Shown here piece by piece: positions 4,506 through 34,295 of a stretch of 64,000 bases of DNA. The first letter of the stretch is position 1, and each line of letters begins with the position of its first letter. This stretch comes from Patescibacteria group bacterium (GTDB taxonomy: Bacteria > Patescibacteriota > UBA1384 > XYA2-FULL-43-10 > 1-14-0-10-43-13), in the NCBI GenBank assembly GCA_041666325.1, contig JBAYHC010000002.1:157319-221318 (forward strand), given 5' to 3'. Below the pieces are notes generated by a model. That model saw only the letters and a list, made by a program, of their open reading frames with translations, did no database searches and was not told the origin of the DNA. Both the position numbers and the translations under genes were made by a program.

Positions 4506-6440
4506 GTGATGGATATTTTCGGAAACTTTGGCGCCCTAAGGGGCGATCGAAAGAAGCGCAAGATTCCTCAAGGTGAAGAGAACGATTTTTCCTATTCTGA
4601 TGCAGTAATTTCAGGGATAACTAAGATAGAAGATAGAGCGATCTCTTCGTTAACACTGCCAGCAAGGACATTGTTGATAATGTTTTTTATCGTATTGCTA
4701 GCCAAAGTATTCTTTTTGCAGGTAGTGGAGGGTAAAAACCACCAGAAACTTGCTGAAGGAAACCGTATCAGACCAAGAGTCCTTGAGGCACCAAGAGGAT
4801 TAATTTCGGACAAAGATGGAGTTTGGCTTGCGCGCAATAAGGCTGATTTTGCTCTCTCGTTTTATCCCTCAGACTTGCCGAAGGCGAAGGCGGACAGAGC
4901 AGAAATTTTCAAGAAGCTTGCCGACGTCTCTGGTTTGGCCCCAGAGGAGATTCAAAAAATTGCCGAAGAGAAGGGAAACTATTTTCTTGATTCAGTTATT
5001 ATCAAGGACCATTTATCACATGATGAGGCGCTGCTATTGGAAGAAAGGACAGCTGATCTGCCGGGTGTGTTTATTGCGCATCGCGTGAGCCGAGAGTATG
5101 TTAGTCTTCCTGGAATCTCACATATCTTGGGATATACTGGCTCCGTTTCGGGTGCAGATCTAAAGGATCATCCTAACTATTTTCTTTCGGATTGGATTGG
5201 AAAGGCGGGAATAGAAAAGGAGTATGAGCAGTATTTGCGCGGAGTCCACGGGGTCGAACAGGTCGAGGTTGATTCGCGCGGAAATGTCGTGCGCGTTCTT
5301 GTCAAAGAGGGCAACATGGAGCCGAAGCCAGGGAATGATGTTTCCCTCTACCTGGACAGAGGATTGCAGTCAAAGGTTGCGCTCTCTCTGCAAGATGGCA
5401 TCAAGAAGGCGAAGGAGATCACCGGTAAGGAGGACATAAACTCAGGTGTGGCTGCCGTAATGGATGTTAGAAACGGCGGAATACTGGCAATGGTTTCTCT
5501 TCCCGACTATGATAATAATCTTTTTGCCACAAGAATATCGAATGATGATTACCAGCGATTGATTAATGATCCATCGCAACCCCTTTTCAACAGAGCAATA
5601 AAGGGCGAGTATCCGCCAGGATCAATCGTTAAGATTGTTATGGCTGCAGCGGGGCTGTCTGAAGGTGTTATTAACGAGGGGACATCTCTTGATACCCCAC
5701 CGGCAATTCAAATTGGAGACTACTCTTTCCCAGACTGGAAAGATCACGGCCTGACTGACGTCGAGCGCGCTATTGCTGAGTCAAATAACATATTCTTTTA
5801 TGCTATTGGCGGCGGATACGACAAGATAAGGGGAATCGGCATAGCAAAGATCAAAGAATATTGGCAGAAATTCGGTTTGGGAAAAACAACCGGGATTGAT
5901 ATTCCAGGGGAAGAAAACGGGCTGTTGCCGGATGGAGAGTGGAAACAAAAGGTCAAGAACGAGCCGTGGTATCTTGGTGACACTTATCATGTTTCAATTG
6001 GCCAGGGAGATTTACTGGTTACGCCTATTCAGATGCTCAGAGCGACTGCTGCCATAGCTAACGGTGGAAAGCTCCTTAATCCACGTTTCATAAAAACAAT
6101 AATAGGATTGGATGGCGAGGTTGTTAAAGAGTTTGGTCCTTCCGTGGAGAACGAGGCAGTCGTTTCCTCCCAGGTTGCAAGCACGGTTGCTCGCGGTATG
6201 CGAATGACGGTGACAGAAGGCTCTGCCAGGAGCTTGAATTCTTTGCCTGTAGCAGTCGCTGGCAAAACAGGCACTGCACAATTTTTCAATAACGAGAAGA
6301 CGCATGCCTGGTTTGAGGCTTTTGCTCCTTATGATGATCCAGAGATTGCCGTCATCGTTCTGATCGAGGGTGGCGGTGGGGGCAACGAAACCGCTGTGCC
6401 TGTTGCTAAGGACATCTTAGATTACTACTTTAGTAGATAA
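4506..6440 (+). CDS. mrdA: Penicillin-binding protein 2 (class B transpeptidase, elongasome)
   Basis: N-terminal TM plus transpeptidase motifs SxxK (GSIVK), SxN (ESNN) and KTG (KTGTAQ). Position after mreBCD supports the call. Confidence 0.85.
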   Translation: MMDIFGNFGALRGDRKKRKIPQGEENDFSYSDAVISGITKIEDRAISSLTLPARTLLIMFFIVLLAKVFFLQVVEGKNHQKLAEGNRIRPRVLEAPRGLISDKDGVWLARNKADFALSFYPSDLPKAKADRAEIFKKLADVSGLAPEEIQKIAEEKGNYFLDSVIIKDHLSHDEALLLEERTADLPGVFIAHRVSREYVSLPGISHILGYTGSVSGADLKDHPNYFLSDWIGKAGIEKEYEQYLRGVHGVEQVEVDSRGNVVRVLVKEGNMEPKPGNDVSLYLDRGLQSKVALSLQDGIKKAKEITGKEDINSGVAAVMDVRNGGILAMVSLPDYDNNLFATRISNDDYQRLINDPSQPLFNRAIKGEYPPGSIVKIVMAAAGLSEGVINEGTSLDTPPAIQIGDYSFPDWKDHGLTDVERAIAESNNIFFYAIGGGYDKIRGIGIAKIKEYWQKFGLGKTTGIDIPGEENGLLPDGEWKQKVKNEPWYLGDTYHVSIGQGDLLVTPIQMLRATAAIANGGKLLNPRFIKTIIGLDGEVVKEFGPSVENEAVVSSQVASTVARGMRMTVTEGSARSLNSLPVAVAGKTGTAQFFNNEKTHAWFEAFAPYDDPEIAVIVLIEGGGGGNETAVPVAKDILDYYFSR

Positions 6441-7914: not shown

Positions 7915-8850
7915 CTACAGCGTTCTGGCTGTCAGGACTGCGTATGGCTTCTGCGCCCTGACGTTGGTCAGCCGCCACTGATCGTTCCGGCGGTTGACTG
8001 TTACGATGTAGCTCGCCTTGGTGGCGCTGGCACCGCCAAGGATAGAGATCCAGCGGAAGTCTACCCGATACTTCCTGCCCTTCCAGAGGCAAGATGTCTC
8101 GATGGTAGGGGTGATGATTCCGGCCTCGTCGAGCGGAAGGTACGCCAGGTTGGCGCACCTCGTCGTCAGGCCGGGGTTTCCCTCGATGGCTCTGAGGCGA
8201 GCAAACTCCCTCTCGACGAAGGCCGCAGCCGGGTCCTCCTCTGCTCCGGCGTAGGGGTTCAGTCCGCGGTAGTCGTCCCCGATCAGGCTAGGATCGTGCC
8301 TGGGGAAGGGCGGAAGCGGAAAGCCACAGTGCTCGAGCGCCTCTTCGCGGCTGTCGACCTCACGGCCGATGCCCTCGAAAGCGACATTCCAGGACAGGGC
8401 ATTCATACCATAATATGGGATGGCCTCTGGTCTGACGTCGATGTCCCTCGCGGAGTTTATGATCTCCTTTTCCTTCCACTCGGGACAGTTCTTCTTCCTG
8501 TTGATGGTGTAGCGGTAGTGGCCGATCTCACGGCCGGTGGGGAAGCGGTAGATGAGGTGTGCGGCATTGCCGACTACTTCGACCTGGGTGTAATTCTCCA
8601 GGTTGGGCCATGCCTCGAAGATGGCCCAGACACGAGATTGCTCATCTGACCATTCTCCGGTGAAGGTTGGCGGCAGGGAGCCGCCTCGATAGTAGTGGAA
8701 GGTGCTGATGACCTTCTCTTCGTGCTCAGCGCATCGTTGCGACGCTTGCTCGATGTACGGCACTCCGATGCCCACTGCGATCATGCCGGCAAGCCCTGCG
8801 GCAATGAGTGTGGTCAATGCAGTTGCTGCTAGTCTTGTCAATCGTTCCAT
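7915..8850 (-). CDS. Hypothetical exported/membrane-anchored protein, high GC (cassette gene A). The ORF track extends to 8907; the likely start is the Met at 8850 (MERLTRL...)
   Basis: N-terminal hydrophobic segment (LAATALTTLIAAGLAGMIAVGIG), preceded by an AAGGAGAG RBS. GC about 62% versus about 45% for the flanking DNA. No family recognised. Confidence 0.5.
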   Translation of the reverse strand: MERLTRLAATALTTLIAAGLAGMIAVGIGVPYIEQASQRCAEHEEKVISTFHYYRGGSLPPTFTGEWSDEQSRVWAIFEAWPNLENYTQVEVVGNAAHLIYRFPTGREIGHYRYTINRKKNCPEWKEKEIINSARDIDVRPEAIPYYGMNALSWNVAFEGIGREVDSREEALEHCGFPLPPFPRHDPSLIGDDYRGLNPYAGAEEDPAAAFVEREFARLRAIEGNPGLTTRCANLAYLPLDEAGIITPTIETSCLWKGRKYRVDFRWISILGGASATKASYIVTVNRRNDQWRLTNVRAQKPYAVLTARTL

Positions 8851-8925
8851 CTTGCCTCTCCTTGCGTCGTGCACATTGGTGGGCTCGAGTGCCCAACCGA
8901 ATGACAAGCGCCAAACGATGGCTCC

Positions 8926-9028: not shown

Positions 9029-9970
9029 TTACTTTCGCCACGGCGGGTTGCCGAAGCGACCGAGCGGGATCTGTTTCGTCCCGGCCGTGCCGGTGGCGAT
9101 CAAGAAGTCCTCGGTGCATTCGAGCCTCTTGATGAGGCCGATCTTGGGGTTGATCCCCGTGAACATCTCGCCGAGCTTGTACTTATCCTCGAACGGCTGG
9201 TAGGCGCAGACCGCCCGAATAGTGCGGCCCTCCTCCTCGACAAGGAAGACCACGTCGTTGTGGCGGCGGTTGATTGCGAGGCAGCCGGTGCTGCCGGTGT
9301 TCTTGAACTGGGCGTCCTGGTACCGGGTGCTTTCGGACGGGCTGATGGTCTGGATGATCCCGTCCATCGTTGCGTAGGCGACTGCGCCGGTGCGCAGATC
9401 ATGGTCAAGTGCGGCCACCTCGGAGTTTTCGTTGAACCAGAGCGGCCTGCTCTGGTCCCTGGAGCAGACGGCCCAGCCGACCTTCGGCTTGGGCTCCATG
9501 ATCTGGTGCCAGGTCCTGACCCCGTACACCTGCTGATCGGGTGTGGACATGTAGGCAACCCCAACGAACTGCAGGTAGGCCTCCATGTAGGTGGCCGGCG
9601 TGAAGACCGGTGTTGACACGGCCTCCAGCCAGATGCGCATGCCCGGTTTGAGCTCCTTGAAGCGGAGGTAGTCCGGGTGGGTAGGCGGGATGCAGATCTT
9701 CCGCCAGCCGTCCTGCCCGTAGTTGACCTTGATAGTGATGTGCTTAGTGAAAGCGCGATCACTTCCCATCTGGTCCCCGTAGCTGATGGCGGTAACGACC
9801 CCGCCGTCAGCGAGCGGCTTGACGAACGCCTTCGCCTCCTCTTCGGCTCTCACCTCAGACCTTGCATTCAGGACGTCGTCCTGATGCCAGATCCAGGTTC
9901 CGACCCAGAGGGTCATGAGGATGAGGCAGAATCCAAGCGCGATCTTCAGTGACTTCTCGATCTCTGTCAT
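9029..9970 (-). CDS. Hypothetical membrane-anchored protein, high GC (cassette gene B). The ORF track extends to 10090; the likely start is the Met at 9970 (MTEIEKSLK...). It may be a Cys-dependent peptidase-like protein (STGCLAI)
   Basis: N-terminal TM (IALGFCLILMTLWVGTWIW) and a GGGAGAGAAAG RBS. The leader resembles that of gene A. A weak L,D-transpeptidase-like Cys motif is present, but the family is not established. Confidence 0.5.
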   Translation of the reverse strand: MTEIEKSLKIALGFCLILMTLWVGTWIWHQDDVLNARSEVRAEEEAKAFVKPLADGGVVTAISYGDQMGSDRAFTKHITIKVNYGQDGWRKICIPPTHPDYLRFKELKPGMRIWLEAVSTPVFTPATYMEAYLQFVGVAYMSTPDQQVYGVRTWHQIMEPKPKVGWAVCSRDQSRPLWFNENSEVAALDHDLRTGAVAYATMDGIIQTISPSESTRYQDAQFKNTGSTGCLAINRRHNDVVFLVEEEGRTIRAVCAYQPFEDKYKLGEMFTGINPKIGLIKRLECTEDFLIATGTAGTKQIPLGRFGNPPWRK

Positions 9971-10037
9971 CTGCTTTCTCTCCCAACGTCGCTGGTGGTG
10001 GCGGGTTCTTTTTCCCCAACCCAACTGCAAAGTACTC

Positions 10038-10054
10038 GTTTGCGACGATCGAGC
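10038..10054 (-). promoter_or_regulatory. Conserved leader element (CGTTTGCGACGATCGAG) upstream of cassette gene B
   Basis: Second copy of the element seen at 8926-8943. Confidence 0.55.
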
Positions 10055-10190
10055 TTGTCTGGTCTTGCCAAACAATTTCGATCGCCGCAACGTGTCGACT
10101 TTGAGAAAAATCTATTCTTTCTGATTGTTAAAGAACGTAATATCATATCATAATTTATTAAAATTGTCAATAGAGCCAAGGACAGACTGC

Positions 10191-27017: not shown

Positions 27018-27599
27018 TCACCGAGGCGAGAACTTGATCGGAAAGGTCTTGGTCGCACTCTTGCCTTTCCACTCGATCTTGACCAGGACCTCGCCACGGT
27101 CCATCTTGGGGAGCAAGACGCTCTCTTCGTGTTCGAAAATGAAGACGTCCTTTGGCGGTGCCAAGGAACGCCACTCGTAGGAGATGACCGGAGTCATCCT
27201 GCCTGCGATCTTCTCGTGGTGCATGTAGAACTTGCTTGTCTCGAACTTGCGACGCCGGTAGGCGATGTAGTGGCCGTTTGCGTCACGTAACCAGATGTGG
27301 GTAGTTAGCCCACGGATCAGGGGTACCCAGGCGAACACCTGCATGCTGTTGATGTCGGTGTACTGGAAGGACTTGCCGTTCGGGTCCAGGCCGGACTCGA
27401 ACTGGGGCAGGGCCTCCTTTGTTACCGTAACAAGGGCCTTCTCAAAGAAGGTGCTGGGCTGGTAGCTGCGGATCTTCTCCTCGCGCAGGTCTTCGCGACT
27501 CCCCTTGACTGTCTCGCAGCGCAAATCCGGCGGGATAGGTCCCGCAAGCGCCGCCGACATGGCCGTGACGACCAAGGTTATAATCAGCCGTTGTTTCAT
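27018..27599 (-). CDS. Hypothetical secreted protein, high GC. The ORF track extends to 27716; the likely start is the Met at 27599 (MKQRLIITLVVTAMSAALAG...)
   Basis: Signal-peptide-like N-terminus, GGAGGGA RBS, and an upstream TTGCAC-17-TACAGT promoter at about 27618-27646 (minus sense). No family recognised. Confidence 0.5.
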   Translation of the reverse strand: MKQRLIITLVVTAMSAALAGPIPPDLRCETVKGSREDLREEKIRSYQPSTFFEKALVTVTKEALPQFESGLDPNGKSFQYTDINSMQVFAWVPLIRGLTTHIWLRDANGHYIAYRRRKFETSKFYMHHEKIAGRMTPVISYEWRSLAPPKDVFIFEHEESVLLPKMDRGEVLVKIEWKGKSATKTFPIKFSPR

Positions 27600-27681
27600 C
27601 GGTATCCCTCCGTCTCTCTGCCTGGCGGTGATACTGTACAATATTTTGCCTTTTTGTGCAATAGTTAGCGACAGGACGAAG

Positions 27682-27711
27682 AAAAAAGCCAGCGGGCTAT
27701 ATGCCGCTGGC
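27682..27711 (-). terminator. Intrinsic terminator of the WD40-like gene (GCCAGCGG-GCTATATG-CCGCTGGC followed by U6 in the minus sense)
   Basis: Perfect 8-bp stem directly after the stop codon at 27713, followed by TTTTTT on the minus strand. Confidence 0.7.
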
Positions 27712-27712
27712 G

Positions 27713-28627
27713 TCAAAGGGTCAGGCCCTGGATGAGGCCATTATCGAGCGCAATATAAAGTGTATCCGGCGAAGCGGCAAGAGATGTAATTCTTCGATTG
27801 AAACGCATAACATTTGCAACTCGCTCGCAGTTACCGAGTTGTTCGAATAGTCCCAGTCTGAACACATCTTCGTTGTCTTCCTTGATCGCCGCTGCTAAAA
27901 TTTTGTCCCAGAGCGTCATGGCAGTAATCCAGCCATAATAAGTTCCAATGAAACGACCCTCGCGCCGCTCTGCCGCCACCTCCTCGACTAGATGCAAGCG
28001 TACCTCAGCTTGCGAGCCAATGGCAATCAGGTCTTTGCCGTAGGGGCCACAGGGCCGGATCGAGCTCATTGACCAGGCAAAACTTGTTCCATTGGTGCAA
28101 CCATCGTAATCTTCCTCGAAATCTCCCCAGCGATAGCGCTTGGTCTGTGCATCCGTTACGGCGATCAGATTCTTCTGTGAGTCAAAGTGGAGGCCAACCA
28201 CATTCTCTTTGCTGATCGGAATAAACTTGAGAAGACCGGGCAAGTGGATGTCCCAGATGCCAATCCCCTGGCAACTTCCACTGGCAATCAGGCCATTATT
28301 ACTGAAAGCCAAGGCCATTATCACATTCTTGTCGTGCGGGGAGTAGATCGCAACAGGATTTACCTCCCCTGGTTCTTCTTCAAGGCTATGGAGATAGATA
28401 TCGCCCTTAACGTTGCCGTAGGCTGCCAACTTGCCATCAGGTGAGACTGCTTGAGCGGTGAAATTGCGCAAGAAAGTGCCAGAGCTAGTCCTAACTTTCT
28501 GCTTCGTGTTGTAGACCCAGAAGCCTTTGCCGGCAGTGGCAACAAGCACCAGGCCATCATCGGAGATGACTAGCCTTGGTATATCCCCCTTCTTTATTCC
28601 AAGATGGGCCAAGTTGTAAAGGTTCAT
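27713..28627 (-). CDS. WD40/beta-propeller repeat protein (hypothetical)
   Basis: Repeated GxxDGxxxAxxxxxxxIxLW-type units (PDGKLAAYGNVKGDIYLHSL; GLIASGSCQGIGIWDI). Strong GGAGGTGA RBS. Confidence 0.55.
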   Translation of the reverse strand: MNLYNLAHLGIKKGDIPRLVISDDGLVLVATAGKGFWVYNTKQKVRTSSGTFLRNFTAQAVSPDGKLAAYGNVKGDIYLHSLEEEPGEVNPVAIYSPHDKNVIMALAFSNNGLIASGSCQGIGIWDIHLPGLLKFIPISKENVVGLHFDSQKNLIAVTDAQTKRYRWGDFEEDYDGCTNGTSFAWSMSSIRPCGPYGKDLIAIGSQAEVRLHLVEEVAAERREGRFIGTYYGWITAMTLWDKILAAAIKEDNEDVFRLGLFEQLGNCERVANVMRFNRRITSLAASPDTLYIALDNGLIQGLTL

Positions 28628-28703: not shown

Positions 28704-30815
<2,112 letters not shown>

Positions 30816-30847
30816 TCAATACATAAAGATTAATTCTAAGGTGAAGT

Positions 30848-31303
30848 ATGGAGAATTTAGGACCAAAAGACATCAATGGTTTGTCTGAGAAGGACAGACA
30901 GATGCTGGAGCCTGGTGCGAAGGGCGAGAAGAAACCTGGTGCGGACGCAAAACCAGACAACGTCAGATCTCAGGACTCGCGCGAAGCAGGCGTTCTGCGC
31001 AAAATGGCACGCATAGCCAAGGATAAGGGTGAGATAGTTAAGCTCTTGGCGATGATTGCCAGCTATGAGCATGAGGTTCCGGGCAAGCGGCCGCAGCCTC
31101 CTATTCAGAAGACGGCTATTGTTCGGAATGAGTACGAAGGCCAAGTGGGCACTTCTCAGTCCAAAGCCATCCAGAGTGCTGAGTCTCGGCCGGTCAACAA
31201 ATCGCAAGCCTTTGAATTCGGCGGAAAACAGATAAATGTTTCGTCTCGAAGCCAGGAAAAAGGCACCAATCCACCCGGATCAGCGCAGGGAATCCCTGTT
31301 TAA
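30848..31303 (+). CDS. Hypothetical protein (151 aa), lysine/glutamate-rich
   Basis: ORF followed by a weak terminator-like hairpin at about 31333-31362. No family recognised. Confidence 0.4.
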   Translation: MENLGPKDINGLSEKDRQMLEPGAKGEKKPGADAKPDNVRSQDSREAGVLRKMARIAKDKGEIVKLLAMIASYEHEVPGKRPQPPIQKTAIVRNEYEGQVGTSQSKAIQSAESRPVNKSQAFEFGGKQINVSSRSQEKGTNPPGSAQGIPV

Positions 31304-31368
31304 TATTCAAAAAATGATGTCCTACACGTAAAATATGGTACATGGGCAAGGTCCCGGCCCAATTTTGT

Positions 31369-31397
31369 TGTTGCCCTCTTGACAAATATCCACGCCT
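31369..31397 (+). promoter_or_regulatory. Near-consensus sigma70 promoter (TTGACA-17-TGgTAGCAT) driving a non-coding GC-rich unit
   Basis: -35 TTGACA at 31369-31374, 17-nt spacer, extended -10 TGgTAGCAT ending at 31397. The predicted transcription start is about 31405. Confidence 0.6.
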
Positions 31398-31404
31398 GTG
31401 GTAG

Positions 31405-32550
31405 CATATTGGCCATATCGTCGATGACGTGAGCGACGTTCGGAAGGAAAGGACGGAGGAATGAAGATCCTCGCTGTTCGCTGACCGACACGCGGCGCGG
31501 GCGCTCCTGGCGAGCGCGGATGGTACTGACCTCTTGTAGGTCTGCGGCGAGGCCTTGCCTCACCCATCCGGTTTACGCCAGGCGGGCGTTCGTCCGCCCA
31601 GTTCAAAATCACTTCTGACGAGTTTCCGTCGGCCCAAACCGGCGGAAGGGTCCCGCAGGCAAACCCCTCCAGGGGGTCCGACCGCGACAACGCGGGACTC
31701 ATCACGATGACGGGAGGTACGCATGGTCACGACGCGCACCTCCGCCCAGCACAGCGTTAAGGCCGCTGGCTAGCCAGGCGGACGTCATCACCCACCCTTC
31801 GGTTCGGGAGGCGCGAATGAGGGTAACACCAAGAACGCGCGCCCGCATGGCGCAGGCATTCGGTGCCTGACCAGCCAGCGGGTCACATCATGTCGACTGC
31901 AAGACCGCACGACCAGGCTCCGGCTGATAACATCATGCCGGAACGCCAAAACAATGCGAATAGGAGCCGCTCGACTGAGCGCGGCGCGGACTTGATCCGG
32001 GCAGCCTTCCGCTCAGCGCCATTGAGCTCCTTGCCCCACATGGGGCCGCAATGCAGACGAGGGCCAGCGCCAAATCGGCCCTCACAAGTGCGTTTCAAGC
32101 AGTACCCACCAATAAAGCCCCGGTGAAACTCCGGGACCCTCAGCAAGCAGTGCCTACTAATGTCCGGGTGCAATTCCCGGCTCATGAGGTGCAAGATGAC
32201 TACATGCCAAGTGGCGACGGCGCGGGAAGAGGGTTCCCGTCTGCTATCGCCCCTGGGGTAGTCCACGGAGGGGTCCGGCGGGCGCGGGTTCGAAACCAGC
32301 GCAAAGCCGGCACAGACCGCCGACTAGGTCAAGTGCACAGGCCTAGACGGCCCAGAACGGGCAGCGCCCCTGCCCCGGCCCGCCAGCCTCAGGCTGGAAG
32401 ACAAAAAGGGGTCGGGCGCCTCACGGCGCGCCCACAGGACGCCGGCGCAAGCGCCGGCCGGATCACTCCGCGGGCGTGGGGAGAGCGGCTTTCGCCGCCT
32501 CCCCGCCCCAATCTCAGACGGCAGTCAACCACGACTGCCTGTTTTTTTTA
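31405..32550 (+). ncRNA. Candidate large structured non-coding RNA (about 1.15 kb, about 65% GC); class undetermined
   Basis: Bounded by a strong promoter and a canonical intrinsic terminator. It contains only short Arg/Pro-rich frames typical of GC-rich non-coding DNA, and has many local and long-range stems. A sub-segment (about 32108-32160) loosely resembles the RNase P CR-II/P11 region (GGTGAAACTCC...AGCAAG). No tmRNA or RNase P identity could be established by eye. Confidence 0.4.
32520..32550 (+). terminator. Intrinsic terminator (GGCAGT-CAACCACG-ACTGCC followed by TGTTTTTTTT)
   Basis: Perfect 6-bp GC stem followed by a U8 tract. Confidence 0.8.
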
Positions 32551-32563
32551 TTTAGAATCCATA

Positions 32564-32601
32564 TTATGCTGAAAACAGTCGATCGTGTATAATCAGCATA
32601 A
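32564..32601 (+). promoter_or_regulatory. Operator-like 9-bp inverted repeat (TTATGCTGA...TCAGCATAA) enclosing GTCGATCGTG and the TATAAT -10 of the PaaX-like gene
   Basis: Perfect IR seen in the sequence. It overlaps the TATAAT box at 32588-32593, about 35 nt upstream of the ATG. This is copy 1 of the motif TGCTGAAnAnnGTCGATCGTGyATA. Confidence 0.5.
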
Positions 32602-32631
32602 GATTATTTAGTACTCAAACAGGAGTGGGCG

Positions 32632-33228
32632 ATGACAAATATCAGAGGTAAGAAGATCATAGAATGGAGAGACGAGAACTACTATAGACGCAGAAGACCG
32701 ATGGCCCAAAAAGCAAGATCTACCGTTGAAGCAACGCTTGATCTGTTGTTGGCAGTGCCGGAGAGTTTGGTGGCAGTGTTTGAGCGAAGGTCAATCTACG
32801 AAGCAATAAGCACTTCTTCGGAAAAAGTGTTGACGGTTGAGAATATCAGTAAGATTTTTCATGGCCTGAAGCGCACTGGATACATCGAAACTACCAAGGA
32901 CAGTAGTGGCCTTGAGTCAGTCCAATTTACCAATAAAGCTAAGCTAAGAGTCATTGATGCAATTGCCGGTTGCCAGGGTTGGGATGAGAAATATCGTTTG
33001 GTTTCATTTGATATTCCTGAACGAATGAGGAACAATCGCGACAAGTTTCGTCGGGCAATCAAGAGGATCGGATTTAGGCAGATCCAAAAAAGCCTCTGGG
33101 TATGCAATCGGAACGTCGAAGAGCTGGTCGGCGTCGCATCGAACGAATACGGTGTTTCGACCTACACTGTCTGTGTCATTGCCGACAAGACAGATATCGA
33201 TAGCGCTATCAGCAAGATGTTCAAATAA
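32632..33228 (+). CDS. PaaX-like transcriptional regulator (N-terminal winged helix plus PaaX_C-type C-terminal domain)
   Basis: wHTH-like segment (ISKIFHGLKRTGYIE) and a C-terminal region colinear with E. coli PaaX (WDEKYRLVSFDIPERMRNNRDKFRRAIKRIGFRQIQKSLWV versus WDGKWLLLLSEGL...VKKQLIWQGFGALAPSLMA). AGGAGTGGG RBS. Confidence 0.6.
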   Translation: MTNIRGKKIIEWRDENYYRRRRPMAQKARSTVEATLDLLLAVPESLVAVFERRSIYEAISTSSEKVLTVENISKIFHGLKRTGYIETTKDSSGLESVQFTNKAKLRVIDAIAGCQGWDEKYRLVSFDIPERMRNNRDKFRRAIKRIGFRQIQKSLWVCNRNVEELVGVASNEYGVSTYTVCVIADKTDIDSAISKMFK

Positions 33229-33259
33229 GGGTGGATATATTTTTTGAATGAAGAATCCT

Positions 33260-33287
33260 CTGCTGAATATCGTCGATCGTGCATAGG
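33260..33287 (+). promoter_or_regulatory. Second copy of the motif (CTGCTGAATATCGTCGATCGTGCATAGG), downstream of the PaaX-like gene and upstream of the second GC-rich unit
   Basis: 20 of 23 positions identical to copy 1 at 32569-32595. Confidence 0.45.
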
Positions 33288-33386
33288 CATAGGAAGATAT
33301 GAAGACGCGGTGGCGGGAAACATTTTTGTGGATAAATATTTAATTCAGGTATTGCAATTGCCGGAAAGTCTGCTAACATAGCATTA

Positions 33387-33765
33387 AATCTGGCAGGGCC
33401 AGCACTATCCAGTCCGGAGTTTACTCCTGTAAAGGTCGAGGACTGGAATCGGCTCTGTTGGGTTCGAGTCAGTGGTTGGCACCCCTCTGCGGGGTCGCAG
33501 CGCCGCTGGCTCTAGGAGAACACCATTGCCACTCACTCTCCGCCGGCCGTCGTGGTCGGCAACAGCAACAAGCTGATCGATGCTGCGACCCGGAACGACC
33601 TGGGCGCGCACGCCAAGCAGGAGTCCCTGACGGGCTGACACATCACCAACAACCACAGCCATAAGGGGAACGAAGGGGTCATTGACCCGAGTTGATGCCA
33701 CCGGGGCATCGACATCGACATGCGGGAGCATGCACCCACCCGGGGTGTGTGCCCCCGCTCTTTTT
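33387..33765 (+). ncRNA. Second candidate structured non-coding RNA (about 380 nt, GC-rich); class undetermined
   Basis: Candidate promoter TTGCAA-16-TAACAT (33353-33380). Downstream hairpin CGGGG-TGTGTGC-CCCCG followed by CTCTTTTT at about 33741-33765. No credible ORF. Contains a T-loop-like GGGTTCGAGTC sequence, but no tRNA fold could be built around it. Confidence 0.3.
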
Positions 33766-33977
33766 GTATCCAGGGTGCAAGCAGCAATATGAAGGGCGAG
33801 AGCAAGGGGATCCTTTGCGCGAATTCGTTCGAATCAATGTCGAAGGATTCAGGATGACAGGGCGGCAGGATGGCGGGAAAGAGGAGCGTCCTTGAATCCG
33901 GAGTCTGGAAGTGGTAAGCTGAGGCCATAGTTCTTAAAGTTTGTAAAGTTCTTAAAGTTGAAATGTAAATTTCTATA

Positions 33978-34295
33978 TTGCCTTATGAACCTTATGAACA
34001 AATTGACATGATTGATATCGAACAAGTAAAACATATTGCCAAGTTGTCTCGATTGGAATTAACACCCGAAGAGGAGAAGAAATACTCAGAACAGCTCTCC
34101 TCGATTTTGGATTATGTTGAACAATTAAATGAAGTTAATACAGACGGTATTCCGCCCATGGCCAATATTACCGGCATGTCCAACGTGTTTCGCGATGACG
34201 GAGTAGAGCCATCCGGTATTTCGCATACCGACATTGCTCAGAATGCGCCAGAGTTTAGAGACGGGTCTTTTGTCGTGCCAGGAGTATTTGAGTGA
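33978..34295 (+). CDS. gatC: Asp/Glu-tRNA(Asn/Gln) amidotransferase subunit C
   Basis: GatC-like sequence (VKHIAKLSRLELTPEEEKKYSEQLSSILDYVEQLNEV) immediately upstream of gatA. The start may be the Met at 34008. Confidence 0.8.
   Translation: MPYEPYEQIDMIDIEQVKHIAKLSRLELTPEEEKKYSEQLSSILDYVEQLNEVNTDGIPPMANITGMSNVFRDDGVEPSGISHTDIAQNAPEFRDGSFVVPGVFE

Follow-up and report, generated by a model that had tools for sequence, protein, structure and literature searches.

What is the GC-rich segment that lies between a gene for a PaaX-like protein and gatC in the genome of a member of the Patescibacteria (candidate phyla radiation)? The segment, called unit 2 here, was examined in a 64-kb stretch of contig JBAYHC010000002.1 (the window, meaning the whole stretch of DNA that was analyzed); the nearest homologues of the PaaX-like protein and of GatC are named Patescibacteria or Berkelbacteria, and the host is placed near the latter group. 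A preliminary description of this DNA had taken unit 2 for a noncoding unit, possibly a permuted transfer-messenger RNA (tmRNA), an RNase P RNA, or the companion of a second GC-rich unit of 1.15 kb (unit 1) on the other side of the PaaX-like gene. The reading favored here, with a probability of roughly one-half, takes unit 2 to be mRNA-like, a stretch of variable, GC-rich cargo that holds a vestigial or tiny open reading frame (ORF) and lies beside a PaaX-like regulator cassette.

The GC content of unit 2 is 61.1% (33385-33770), or 58.5% over 33353-33930, compared with ~45% in the flanking genes, which bears out its description as GC rich. Its description as a discrete unit running from promoter to terminator also holds, with ~380 nt on the plus strand, strand-specific structure at the 5' end, and a real terminator. 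It is composed of the following parts.

33352-33379, plus strand: putative promoter, TTGCAA-16-(TGC)TAACAT, with a predicted transcript start at ~33386
33387-33464, plus strand: hairpin H1 at the predicted 5' end, with a 14-bp outer stem (5 G-U pairs) and then an 8-bp CCAGTCC/GGACTGG stem
33466-33512, plus strand: hairpin H2, with an 11-bp stem (3 G-U pairs) and an inner GC stem
33516-33638, plus strand: 40-codon frame rich in GC at third codon positions (GC3), ENTIATHSPPAVVVGNSNKLIDAATRNDLGAHAKQESLTG and then a stop, picked out by periodicity and codon score
33639-33721, plus strand: spacer with two small hairpins between the 40-codon frame and the terminator
33722-33767, plus strand: intrinsic terminator, a 15-bp (5- plus 10-bp) hairpin at 33722-33758 and then TCTTTTTGT

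The promoter-like site consists of TTGCAA (33352-57), a 16-nt spacer, and TAACAT (33374-79). These elements are present as first described, but they make only 8 of 12 consensus matches, and a sigma-70 scan that accepted hexamers 16 to 18 nt apart with at least 9 of 12 matches left the site unlisted. The TGC before the -10 box is of the extended -10 type, and TG also occurs in the promoters of unit 1 and gatC. At the other end, a GC-rich hairpin directly precedes a T-run, as expected of an intrinsic terminator and as claimed earlier; no terminator was found from the stop codon of the PaaX-like gene (33228) to 33722.

The center of unit 2 has the character of coding sequence. The view that it holds no credible ORF is right insofar as there is no gene-like ORF with a canonical start and no Pfam match on any unit 2 ORF of at least 45 amino acids, but it overlooked a strong three-base periodicity at 33480-33720. 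GC by position modulo 3 is flat to ~33440 and strongly periodic thereafter, with values by phase of ~0.48, 0.85, and 0.57 to 0.59 at 33480-33720 (chi-square, 26), a rank of 16 among 531 scanning windows of the 64 kb; the higher-ranked ones with a GC-rich phase of ~0.8 to 0.9 lie in the GC-rich ORFs at 9 to 10 kb and 27 kb. The phase, together with the order of first- and second-position GC, points to the plus-strand frame at 33516-33638, whose GC content by codon position is ~0.59, 0.48, and 0.85. When codon usage is taken from the GC-rich ORFs of the window itself, this frame (33516-33635) has a log likelihood of +12.8 bits, the best of the six frames, the next best reaching +2.3 bits. In-frame stops occur at 33513, 33636, and 33693. 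Weak periodicity in the same phase persists past the stop, through two further in-frame TGA codons (the second at 33693), with GC by phase of 43, 80, and 50% at 33630-33719 and a codon score of +2.4 bits in the same frame at 33639-33721; since gatC itself ends in TGA, the host reads this codon as a stop.

The frame therefore combines the periodicity and one-frame codon usage of a protein-coding gene with the lack of a canonical start and of homologues. It contains no in-frame ATG or TTG, and its sole in-frame GTG (33552) is not preceded by a Shine-Dalgarno-like motif. An AGGAGA motif (33514-19) overlaps the in-frame stop TAG and is followed after 5 nt by an in-frame ATT (33525). Two minus-strand ORFs were considered and rejected: one of 108 amino acids (33405-33731), annotated by gene callers, has the GC-rich phase at codon position 1, and one of 131 amino acids (33533-33928) has a first-position GC content below that of its second position. 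The periodicity at 33480-33720 is best read as marking coding-type sequence, and the label "noncoding" is doubtful for a core that is periodic, scores highly in one plus-strand frame, and is not unusually folded.

Folding sets this core apart from the two ends. Compared with dinucleotide shuffles, which correct for composition, unit 2 as a whole has a fold z score of -4.50 on the plus strand and -1.56 on the minus strand; its parts and the sequence beyond it score as follows.

33385-33515 (131 nt): z of -5.14 (plus) and -2.08 (minus), with 0 of 200 shuffles as good on the plus strand; two long hairpins with at least 8 G-U pairs
33516-33640: z of -1.22 (plus) and +0.16 (minus); fold not unusual
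33636-33770 (135 nt): z of -3.62 (plus) and -1.81 (minus); terminator region
33780-33925: z of +0.19 (plus) and +0.75 (minus); no structure signal

The unexceptional fold of the core, unlike those of the 5' 131 nt and the 3' 135 nt, supports the favored reading. The predicted transcript start coincides with the base of H1, in which the minimum free energy and centroid structures are the same, and the long stems of the 5' domain are free of mismatches. The complementarity reported earlier between CCAGTCC (33409) and GGACTGG (33440) is real, and both segments pair within H1. Structure does not, however, continue to ~33930 as had been proposed, and a second proposed complementarity, GGATTCAGG with CCTTGAATCC, falls in the segment without a fold signal and overlaps the gatC promoter at its -35 box, which lies within CCTTGAATCC. 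That segment includes one further feature.

33845-33920, plus strand: gatCAB upstream region, outside unit 2, with a conserved AGGATGACA motif and the promoter TTGAAT-17-TGGTAAGCT (33892-33920)

The gatC promoter, TTGAAT-17-TGnTAAGCT, is conserved by alignment in L036, L038, and L039 and is present in L124 (L-numbers denote fetched loci or contigs, 119 of which are not copies of the window locus). Three 9-nt tandem repeats of the AGTTCTTAA type follow it at 33929-33959, and contigs L003 and L004 end at 33958. For gatC itself (33978-34295), alignment of homologues suggests that translation starts at the ATG at 34008 (MIDIEQ...) rather than at the listed TTG at 33978.

Unit 2 is not a tmRNA, an RNase P RNA, or any catalogued RNA. 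None of the 4,227 models of Rfam 15 matched at its gathering score anywhere in the 64-kb window, so the Rfam comparison proposed in the preliminary description returned no family for unit 2. At E values up to 10, neither the surrounding 3.4 kb (30700-34100) nor the 601 nt at 33340-33940, the latter run with the laxest filters, gave a tmRNA, an RNase P RNA, or another plausible family; the only two matches on the 601 nt were HOXB13-AS1_2 (19 bits, against a gathering score of 40) and tfoR (11.7 against 70). This leaves no support for RNase P RNA (RF00010, RF00011, RF00373, and others), of which no conserved core (P4 and conserved regions) was matched, or for tmRNA in its standard and permuted forms (RF00023 and RF01849-51), for which neither Rfam nor ARAGORN found a tRNA-like domain (acceptor stem plus T-arm). 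ARAGORN, with permuted tmRNA included, found 0 tRNA or tmRNA genes in the 64 kb. Searches of related loci were of the same kind: Rfam at gathering score on 28 of them found a single 16S rRNA and five tRNAs, all outside the GC-rich islands, and ARAGORN on 30 found no tRNA or tmRNA within any such island. The T-loop-like site noted earlier, GGGTTCGAGTC, does occur at 33460, but the motif GGGTTCGAG lacks a flanking stem there, and GGGTTCGAR has two occurrences in the window where 1.08 would be expected; a reading as a T loop was rejected on these grounds and given the ARAGORN result. The likeness of unit 2 to tmRNA and RNase P RNA, in its GC content, structured ends, GGGTTCGAG motif, and short frame, is superficial. 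The tag frame of a tmRNA needs neither a Shine-Dalgarno motif nor a start codon for entry and ends as a hydrophobic degradation tag. The unit 2 frame, in contrast, follows AGGAGA and ends in QESLTG before its stop, which is not a tag of that type.

The gap between ligA and gatC, in which unit 2 lies, is a fast-turnover slot. It measures 127 nt in L042 and in the window holds a 3.1-kb insert; L040 has in its place an 85-amino-acid ORF and a PHP-domain gene, and L038 has ~1 kb of nonperiodic sequence of ~60% GC and a 75-amino-acid ORF. Among 80 further metagenome gatC loci there is no PaaX-like gene and nothing resembling unit 1 or unit 2, and several carry other GC-richer genes just 5' of gatC. 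Unit 2 had no DNA match in the fetched noncopy loci except at the gatC promoter block, and a six-frame tblastx comparison of unit 2 with all loci gave nothing; a degenerate back-translated pattern of its frame was absent from viral contigs. Other occupants of the slot include mutually similar, relatively GC-rich ORFs of ~150 codons directly 5' of gatC in L074 (484-954) and L075 (321-824). Nonperiodic islands of 60 to 68% GC without an Rfam match lie 5' of gatC in L051 (2590-3700) and L038 (5800-6400), and the L038 island, between ligA and gatC, occupies the same position as unit 1 does in the window.

Two relatives may show what the unit 2 frame once was. L036 (from run SRR22387874) and L037 (from run SRR24490437) are the closest relatives, with GatC proteins 83% and 76% identical to that of the window. 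They carry plus-strand ORFs with a GC3 of 0.8 to 0.95 directly 5' of gatC, each cut by a contig end, and the L036 ORF is separated from the conserved gatC promoter by a hairpin region and a T-run. Both ORFs contain repeats of the motif N-I-x-A-x-S-P-P-T, and their relationship to one another is weak (2 of 1,000 shuffles); neither gave a match to phages, plasmids, or Pfam. The window frame begins N-T-I-A-T-H-S-P-P-A and contains GNSNK, which is also found near the C terminus of the L036 ORF. A hidden Markov model (HMM) of the repeat, built from the L036 and L037 ORFs only, has its best six-frame match in the 64 kb exactly at 33516-33635 (8.8 bits; E value, 0.28). Homology of the 33516-33638 frame to these ORFs is suggested by the resemblance, and it is in this suggestive form only that unit 2 aligns with a protein gene in relatives, the finding that would mark it as a gene remnant.

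In the favored reading, unit 2 (~33386-33767, plus strand) would be a transcription unit whose GC-rich DNA, foreign in composition and quick to turn over, occupies the ligA-gatC slot. The weak promoter of the extended -10 type would start transcription at a point that makes the base of two stable hairpins the 5' end of the transcript, and the hairpins may stabilize that end. The strong terminator would end the transcript, stop read-through from the PaaX-like gene, and insulate the gatCAB promoter. The 40-codon frame would most likely be the 3' end, now in decay, of a longer GC-rich ORF like those in L036 and L037 or, less likely, a surviving mini-ORF.

Several observations weigh against this reading. 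A repeat-HMM score of 8.8 bits would be at noise level in a larger database; when the frame is compared with the L036 and L037 ORFs directly, 4 to 6% and 2 to 8% of shuffles, respectively, reach the observed score, and there is no BLASTP alignment or DNA-level similarity between them. The frame, with stops masked, had no homologue among 5.8 billion proteins searched by word index, and its 40 amino acids had none among 1.84 billion representatives searched with full HMMER; unit 2 had no DNA match in plasmids or phages. The coding signal spans only ~120 to 200 of the 380 nt, and the tidy layout and G-U-rich, strand-specific helices are what would be expected of a functional RNA. The case for foreign origin is one of composition, with no donor identified. 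As a strain-specific islet of atypical composition with a gene remnant, unit 2 would be an instance of an already known kind: it has 61% GC against ~45%, a GC3 of ~0.85, and orphan sequence, it lies between genes that are adjacent in one relative (L042), and the contents of the gap differ from one related species to the next. It departs from a typical genomic islet in that neither an integrase nor a tRNA target was seen, nor were direct-repeat borders, and in that it has its own promoter-like site, 5' hairpin pair, and terminator.

The neighborhood of unit 2 is arranged as follows.

28725-30815: ligA
Between ligA and unit 1: orphan ORF of 151 amino acids
~31381-32575: unit 1, GC rich, between the orphan ORF and the PaaX-like gene
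31379-32547, plus strand: promoter-to-terminator extent of unit 1, with promoter TTGACA-17-TAGCAT (with TG), ~1.1 kb of 64% GC, and a terminator at 32520-47
31415-29: operator-like site of unit 1, ATATCGTCGATGACG
32561-32604, plus strand: R1, upstream repeat copy, containing a palindrome and overlapping the TATAAT box of the PaaX-like gene
32632-33228, plus strand: PaaX_M/Cas2-like gene, 198 amino acids, upstream of unit 2
33261-33298, plus strand: R2, downstream repeat copy, with core GTCGATCGTG 71 nt before the unit 2 -35 box
From 33978: gatC as called, downstream of unit 2

This locus is also present in five other public contigs, and the organism was recovered in five public datasets (ERZ27249449, GCA_041659665.1, SRR6484324, SRR18595301, and JGI 3300037810). 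The five contigs match the window with 100% identity over as much as 20.6 kb. All six copies are therefore identical, and neither covariation nor polymorphism can be used at this locus.

The PaaX-like protein matches the Pfam families PaaX_M (PF20803; E value, 6.4e-18) and Cas2 (2.3e-05). Its structural model has a helix-helix-wing N-terminal half that is predicted to be followed by a beta-alpha-beta-beta-alpha-beta Cas2-like ferredoxin fold, and the best PDB folds for the model are PaaX-type and PadR/MarR-type regulators, all of them weak (E value, ~0.01). The protein is far below the cutoff of the full-length equivalog family TIGR02277 (22.6 against 264.55 bits). The CRISPR-Cas signal of the locus is limited to the Cas2-like domain: no array was found in the window by Tandem Repeats Finder and no CRISPR repeat by Rfam, and Cas1 was not searched for across the window. 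The family is multicopy within genomes. Its cassettes were absent from the viral contigs examined, and the idea that they are phage genes was rejected on that ground.

The gene is bracketed by a 38-nt direct repeat (32567-32604 and 33261-33298; 74% identity), of which a 25-nt pattern has 2 matches against 0.00 expected. Pairing of this kind is widespread: among 29 loci from other members of the Patescibacteria, 25 have an exact word of at least 12 nt (median, 15; maximum, 40) in common between the flanks on the two sides of the gene, compared with 7 of 200 mismatched flank pairs. The shared words are parts of locus-specific palindromes of 30 to 40 nt centered on CGATCG, CGGCCG, CAGCTG, or TGGCCA (loci L005-L034). 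In four loci, extra copies of the local palindrome (L012 at 6409, L016 at 1626 and 3738, L019 at 2332, and L023 at 1660) lie 1.6 to 2.3 kb away, beyond unrelated genes encoding a UbiA-like protein, a PEP-CTERM protein, and orphans, which indicates that the repeats bracket cargo as well as the regulator gene.

GC-rich DNA adjoins these cassettes elsewhere. The orthologous loci L007 and L009 (77 to 80% identical) are collinear as far as the final base of the downstream palindrome and become so again at glyS, and between the two points they carry unrelated GC-rich inserts of 694 nt (L007, 4624-5317) and 1,135 nt (L009, 4620-5754). A placement test found 6 GC-rich islets adjoining cassettes against 2.55 expected (P of ~0.03). 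The L007 islet is nonperiodic and folds modestly better than shuffles (z of -2.1 and -3.5). Intact high-GC3 genes next to cassettes encode a cold-shock-domain protein (L018), a radical SAM/SPASM enzyme (L021), and orphans (L009 and L011). Downstream of the L011 cassette, and oriented as it is, come a promoter-like TTGATA-17-TATTAT, AAGGAG, ATG, and an intact 187-codon ORF with a GC3 of 0.75; by analogy, this arrangement looks like a version of unit 2 in which the gene is still alive. The SAM/SPASM gene of L021 (2281-3546) lies just upstream of its cassette, and in L017 (1907-3366) the cassette is directly 3' of a 16S rRNA gene. In L008, a nonperiodic sequence of 62% GC (4640-5209) comes directly after a perfect 36-nt cassette palindrome (4571-4606) and is cut by the contig end; this island has z scores of -5.4 (plus) and -9.6 (minus) and several hairpins of 15 to 20 bp.

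Unit 1 has a good promoter of the extended -10 type, shows no coding signal, folds with z scores of -2.3 to -4.6 on both strands, and has no Rfam match. The 11-mer ATATCGTCGAT of R2 recurs exactly at 31415, just after the unit 1 -10 box, and its sole other exact copy lies inside coding sequence. The proposed companionship of the two units could hold only in the loose sense that both flank the PaaX-like cassette and that ATATCGTCGAT stands at the predicted start of unit 1; the units share no sequence. The possibility that they are one gene split by the cassette was rejected, as unit 1 has its own terminator and lacks a coding signal. Elsewhere in the window, three long minus-strand ORFs (7915-8907, 9029-10090, and 27018-27716) have a GC3 of 0.72 to 0.83; the two at 8 to 10 kb are similar in length and adjoin each other on the same strand. 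None of the three belongs significantly to a Pfam, NCBIfam, or PADLOC family, the only match scoring 17.7 bits against a cutoff of 420.

Three other accounts of unit 2 have to be set against its reading as cargo with a gene remnant. It might be a structured small RNA of ~380 nt, perhaps one of two (with unit 1) that are controlled by or work with the PaaX-like protein, the periodic core being coincidental or dual function. The plus-strand bias of the fold, the 5' domain with its G-U pairs and mismatch-free long stems, the predicted start at the base of H1, and the strong terminator all speak for such an RNA, as do the operator-like repeats at the start of unit 1 (31415), at the promoter of the PaaX-like gene, and 5' of unit 2, and the fact that other cassettes adjoin GC-rich, nonperiodic, well-folding DNA, strongly so in L008 and modestly in L007. 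This account is nonetheless unlikely: no Rfam family matches, the central third is unstructured and coding-like, and no homologue of unit 2 was found in the 119 noncopy loci, plasmids, or phages, and a species-specific structural RNA of 380 nt would be unusual. The identity of all copies leaves no compensatory changes to score in its favor. The same hairpins could instead form a structured 5' untranslated region (UTR) of 130 nt in a live microprotein gene, with AGGAGA, an AUU or other noncanonical start at 33525, 37 residues, and the terminator, for a predicted product of (M/I)ATHSPPAVVVGNSNKLIDAATRNDLGAHAKQESLTG. The spacing of AGGAGA and ATT, the stop TAG overlapping the Shine-Dalgarno motif, the best-of-six codon score, the unstructured ORF, and a coding signal largely limited to the 40 codons would all suit such a gene. 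AUU starts are rare, however, and the frame offers no ATG or TTG and only a GTG without a Shine-Dalgarno-like motif. The databases of 5.8 billion proteins and 1.84 billion representatives gave no homologue, and the weak periodicity past the stop is that of a truncated longer ORF, so that a live microprotein is rather improbable.

It is similarly improbable that unit 2 is functionless filler, whether as the long 3' UTR of a PaaX-like transcript or as dead DNA of foreign origin, with the hairpins and the promoter-like and Shine-Dalgarno-like motifs arising by chance in GC-rich sequence. The absence of a terminator between the PaaX-like stop and 33722 fits a long 3' UTR, the promoter makes only 8 of 12 matches, unit 2 is species specific, and GC-rich sequence readily gives long ORFs and stems. 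The z score of -5.1 was, however, obtained against dinucleotide shuffles and is already corrected for composition, and a strong terminator and phase-coherent periodicity are not chance features.

The cassette itself invites comparison with two known systems. Like the PaaX-family transcriptional repressors with palindromic operators, of which Escherichia coli PaaX is an example, the neighbor gene of unit 2 has a PaaX_M Cas2-like domain, a winged-helix-like half, and a palindrome over its own -10 box; it differs in that the family is only ~185 to 200 amino acids long, lacks the PaaX C-terminal domain, and is multicopy, and in that a second copy of the palindrome follows the gene and more copies lie beyond neighboring cargo in some loci. 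The other system is the chromosomal integron, in whose cassette arrays repeated palindromic attC sites separate orphan cassettes of foreign composition. The likeness here, which is one of general resemblance rather than of assigned membership, is that palindromic repeats bracket short units, that the cargo is heterogeneous, often orphan, and atypical in GC content, and that orthologous loci differ precisely beyond the repeat; in contrast to integron arrays, no integrase was seen, each locus has 2 to 4 repeats of 30 to 40 nt, and the repeats are specific to the PaaX-like paralogue. A search of the literature found no description of the PaaX-like cassette or of GC-rich islets in these bacteria, and the paired-palindrome cassette with replacement of GC-rich inserts at its edge is the part not found described.

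A more speculative view, and a quite doubtful one, is that units 1 and 2 are cargo of a previously undescribed module of the Patescibacteria, made up of a small winged-helix and Cas2-like gene and the cognate palindromes of 30 to 40 nt on either side of it. The palindromes would mark, or themselves generate, a place at which foreign GC-rich DNA or structured RNA is taken up, swapped, and brought under the control of the protein. Such a module would be comparable to an integron or to a minimal acquisition system that lacks a known recombinase.

As a candidate RNA, unit 2 loses most of its appeal: it is neither a tmRNA nor an RNase P RNA that was missing from a candidate-phyla bacterium, and its core resembles a remnant of coding sequence. 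The small genomes of these bacteria hold pockets with a GC3 of 0.7 to 0.9 amid a background of ~40 to 47% GC. If the link between cassettes and islets is mechanistic, it would be relevant to the way in which foreign DNA is acquired and tamed by episymbiotic bacteria whose genomes are reduced.

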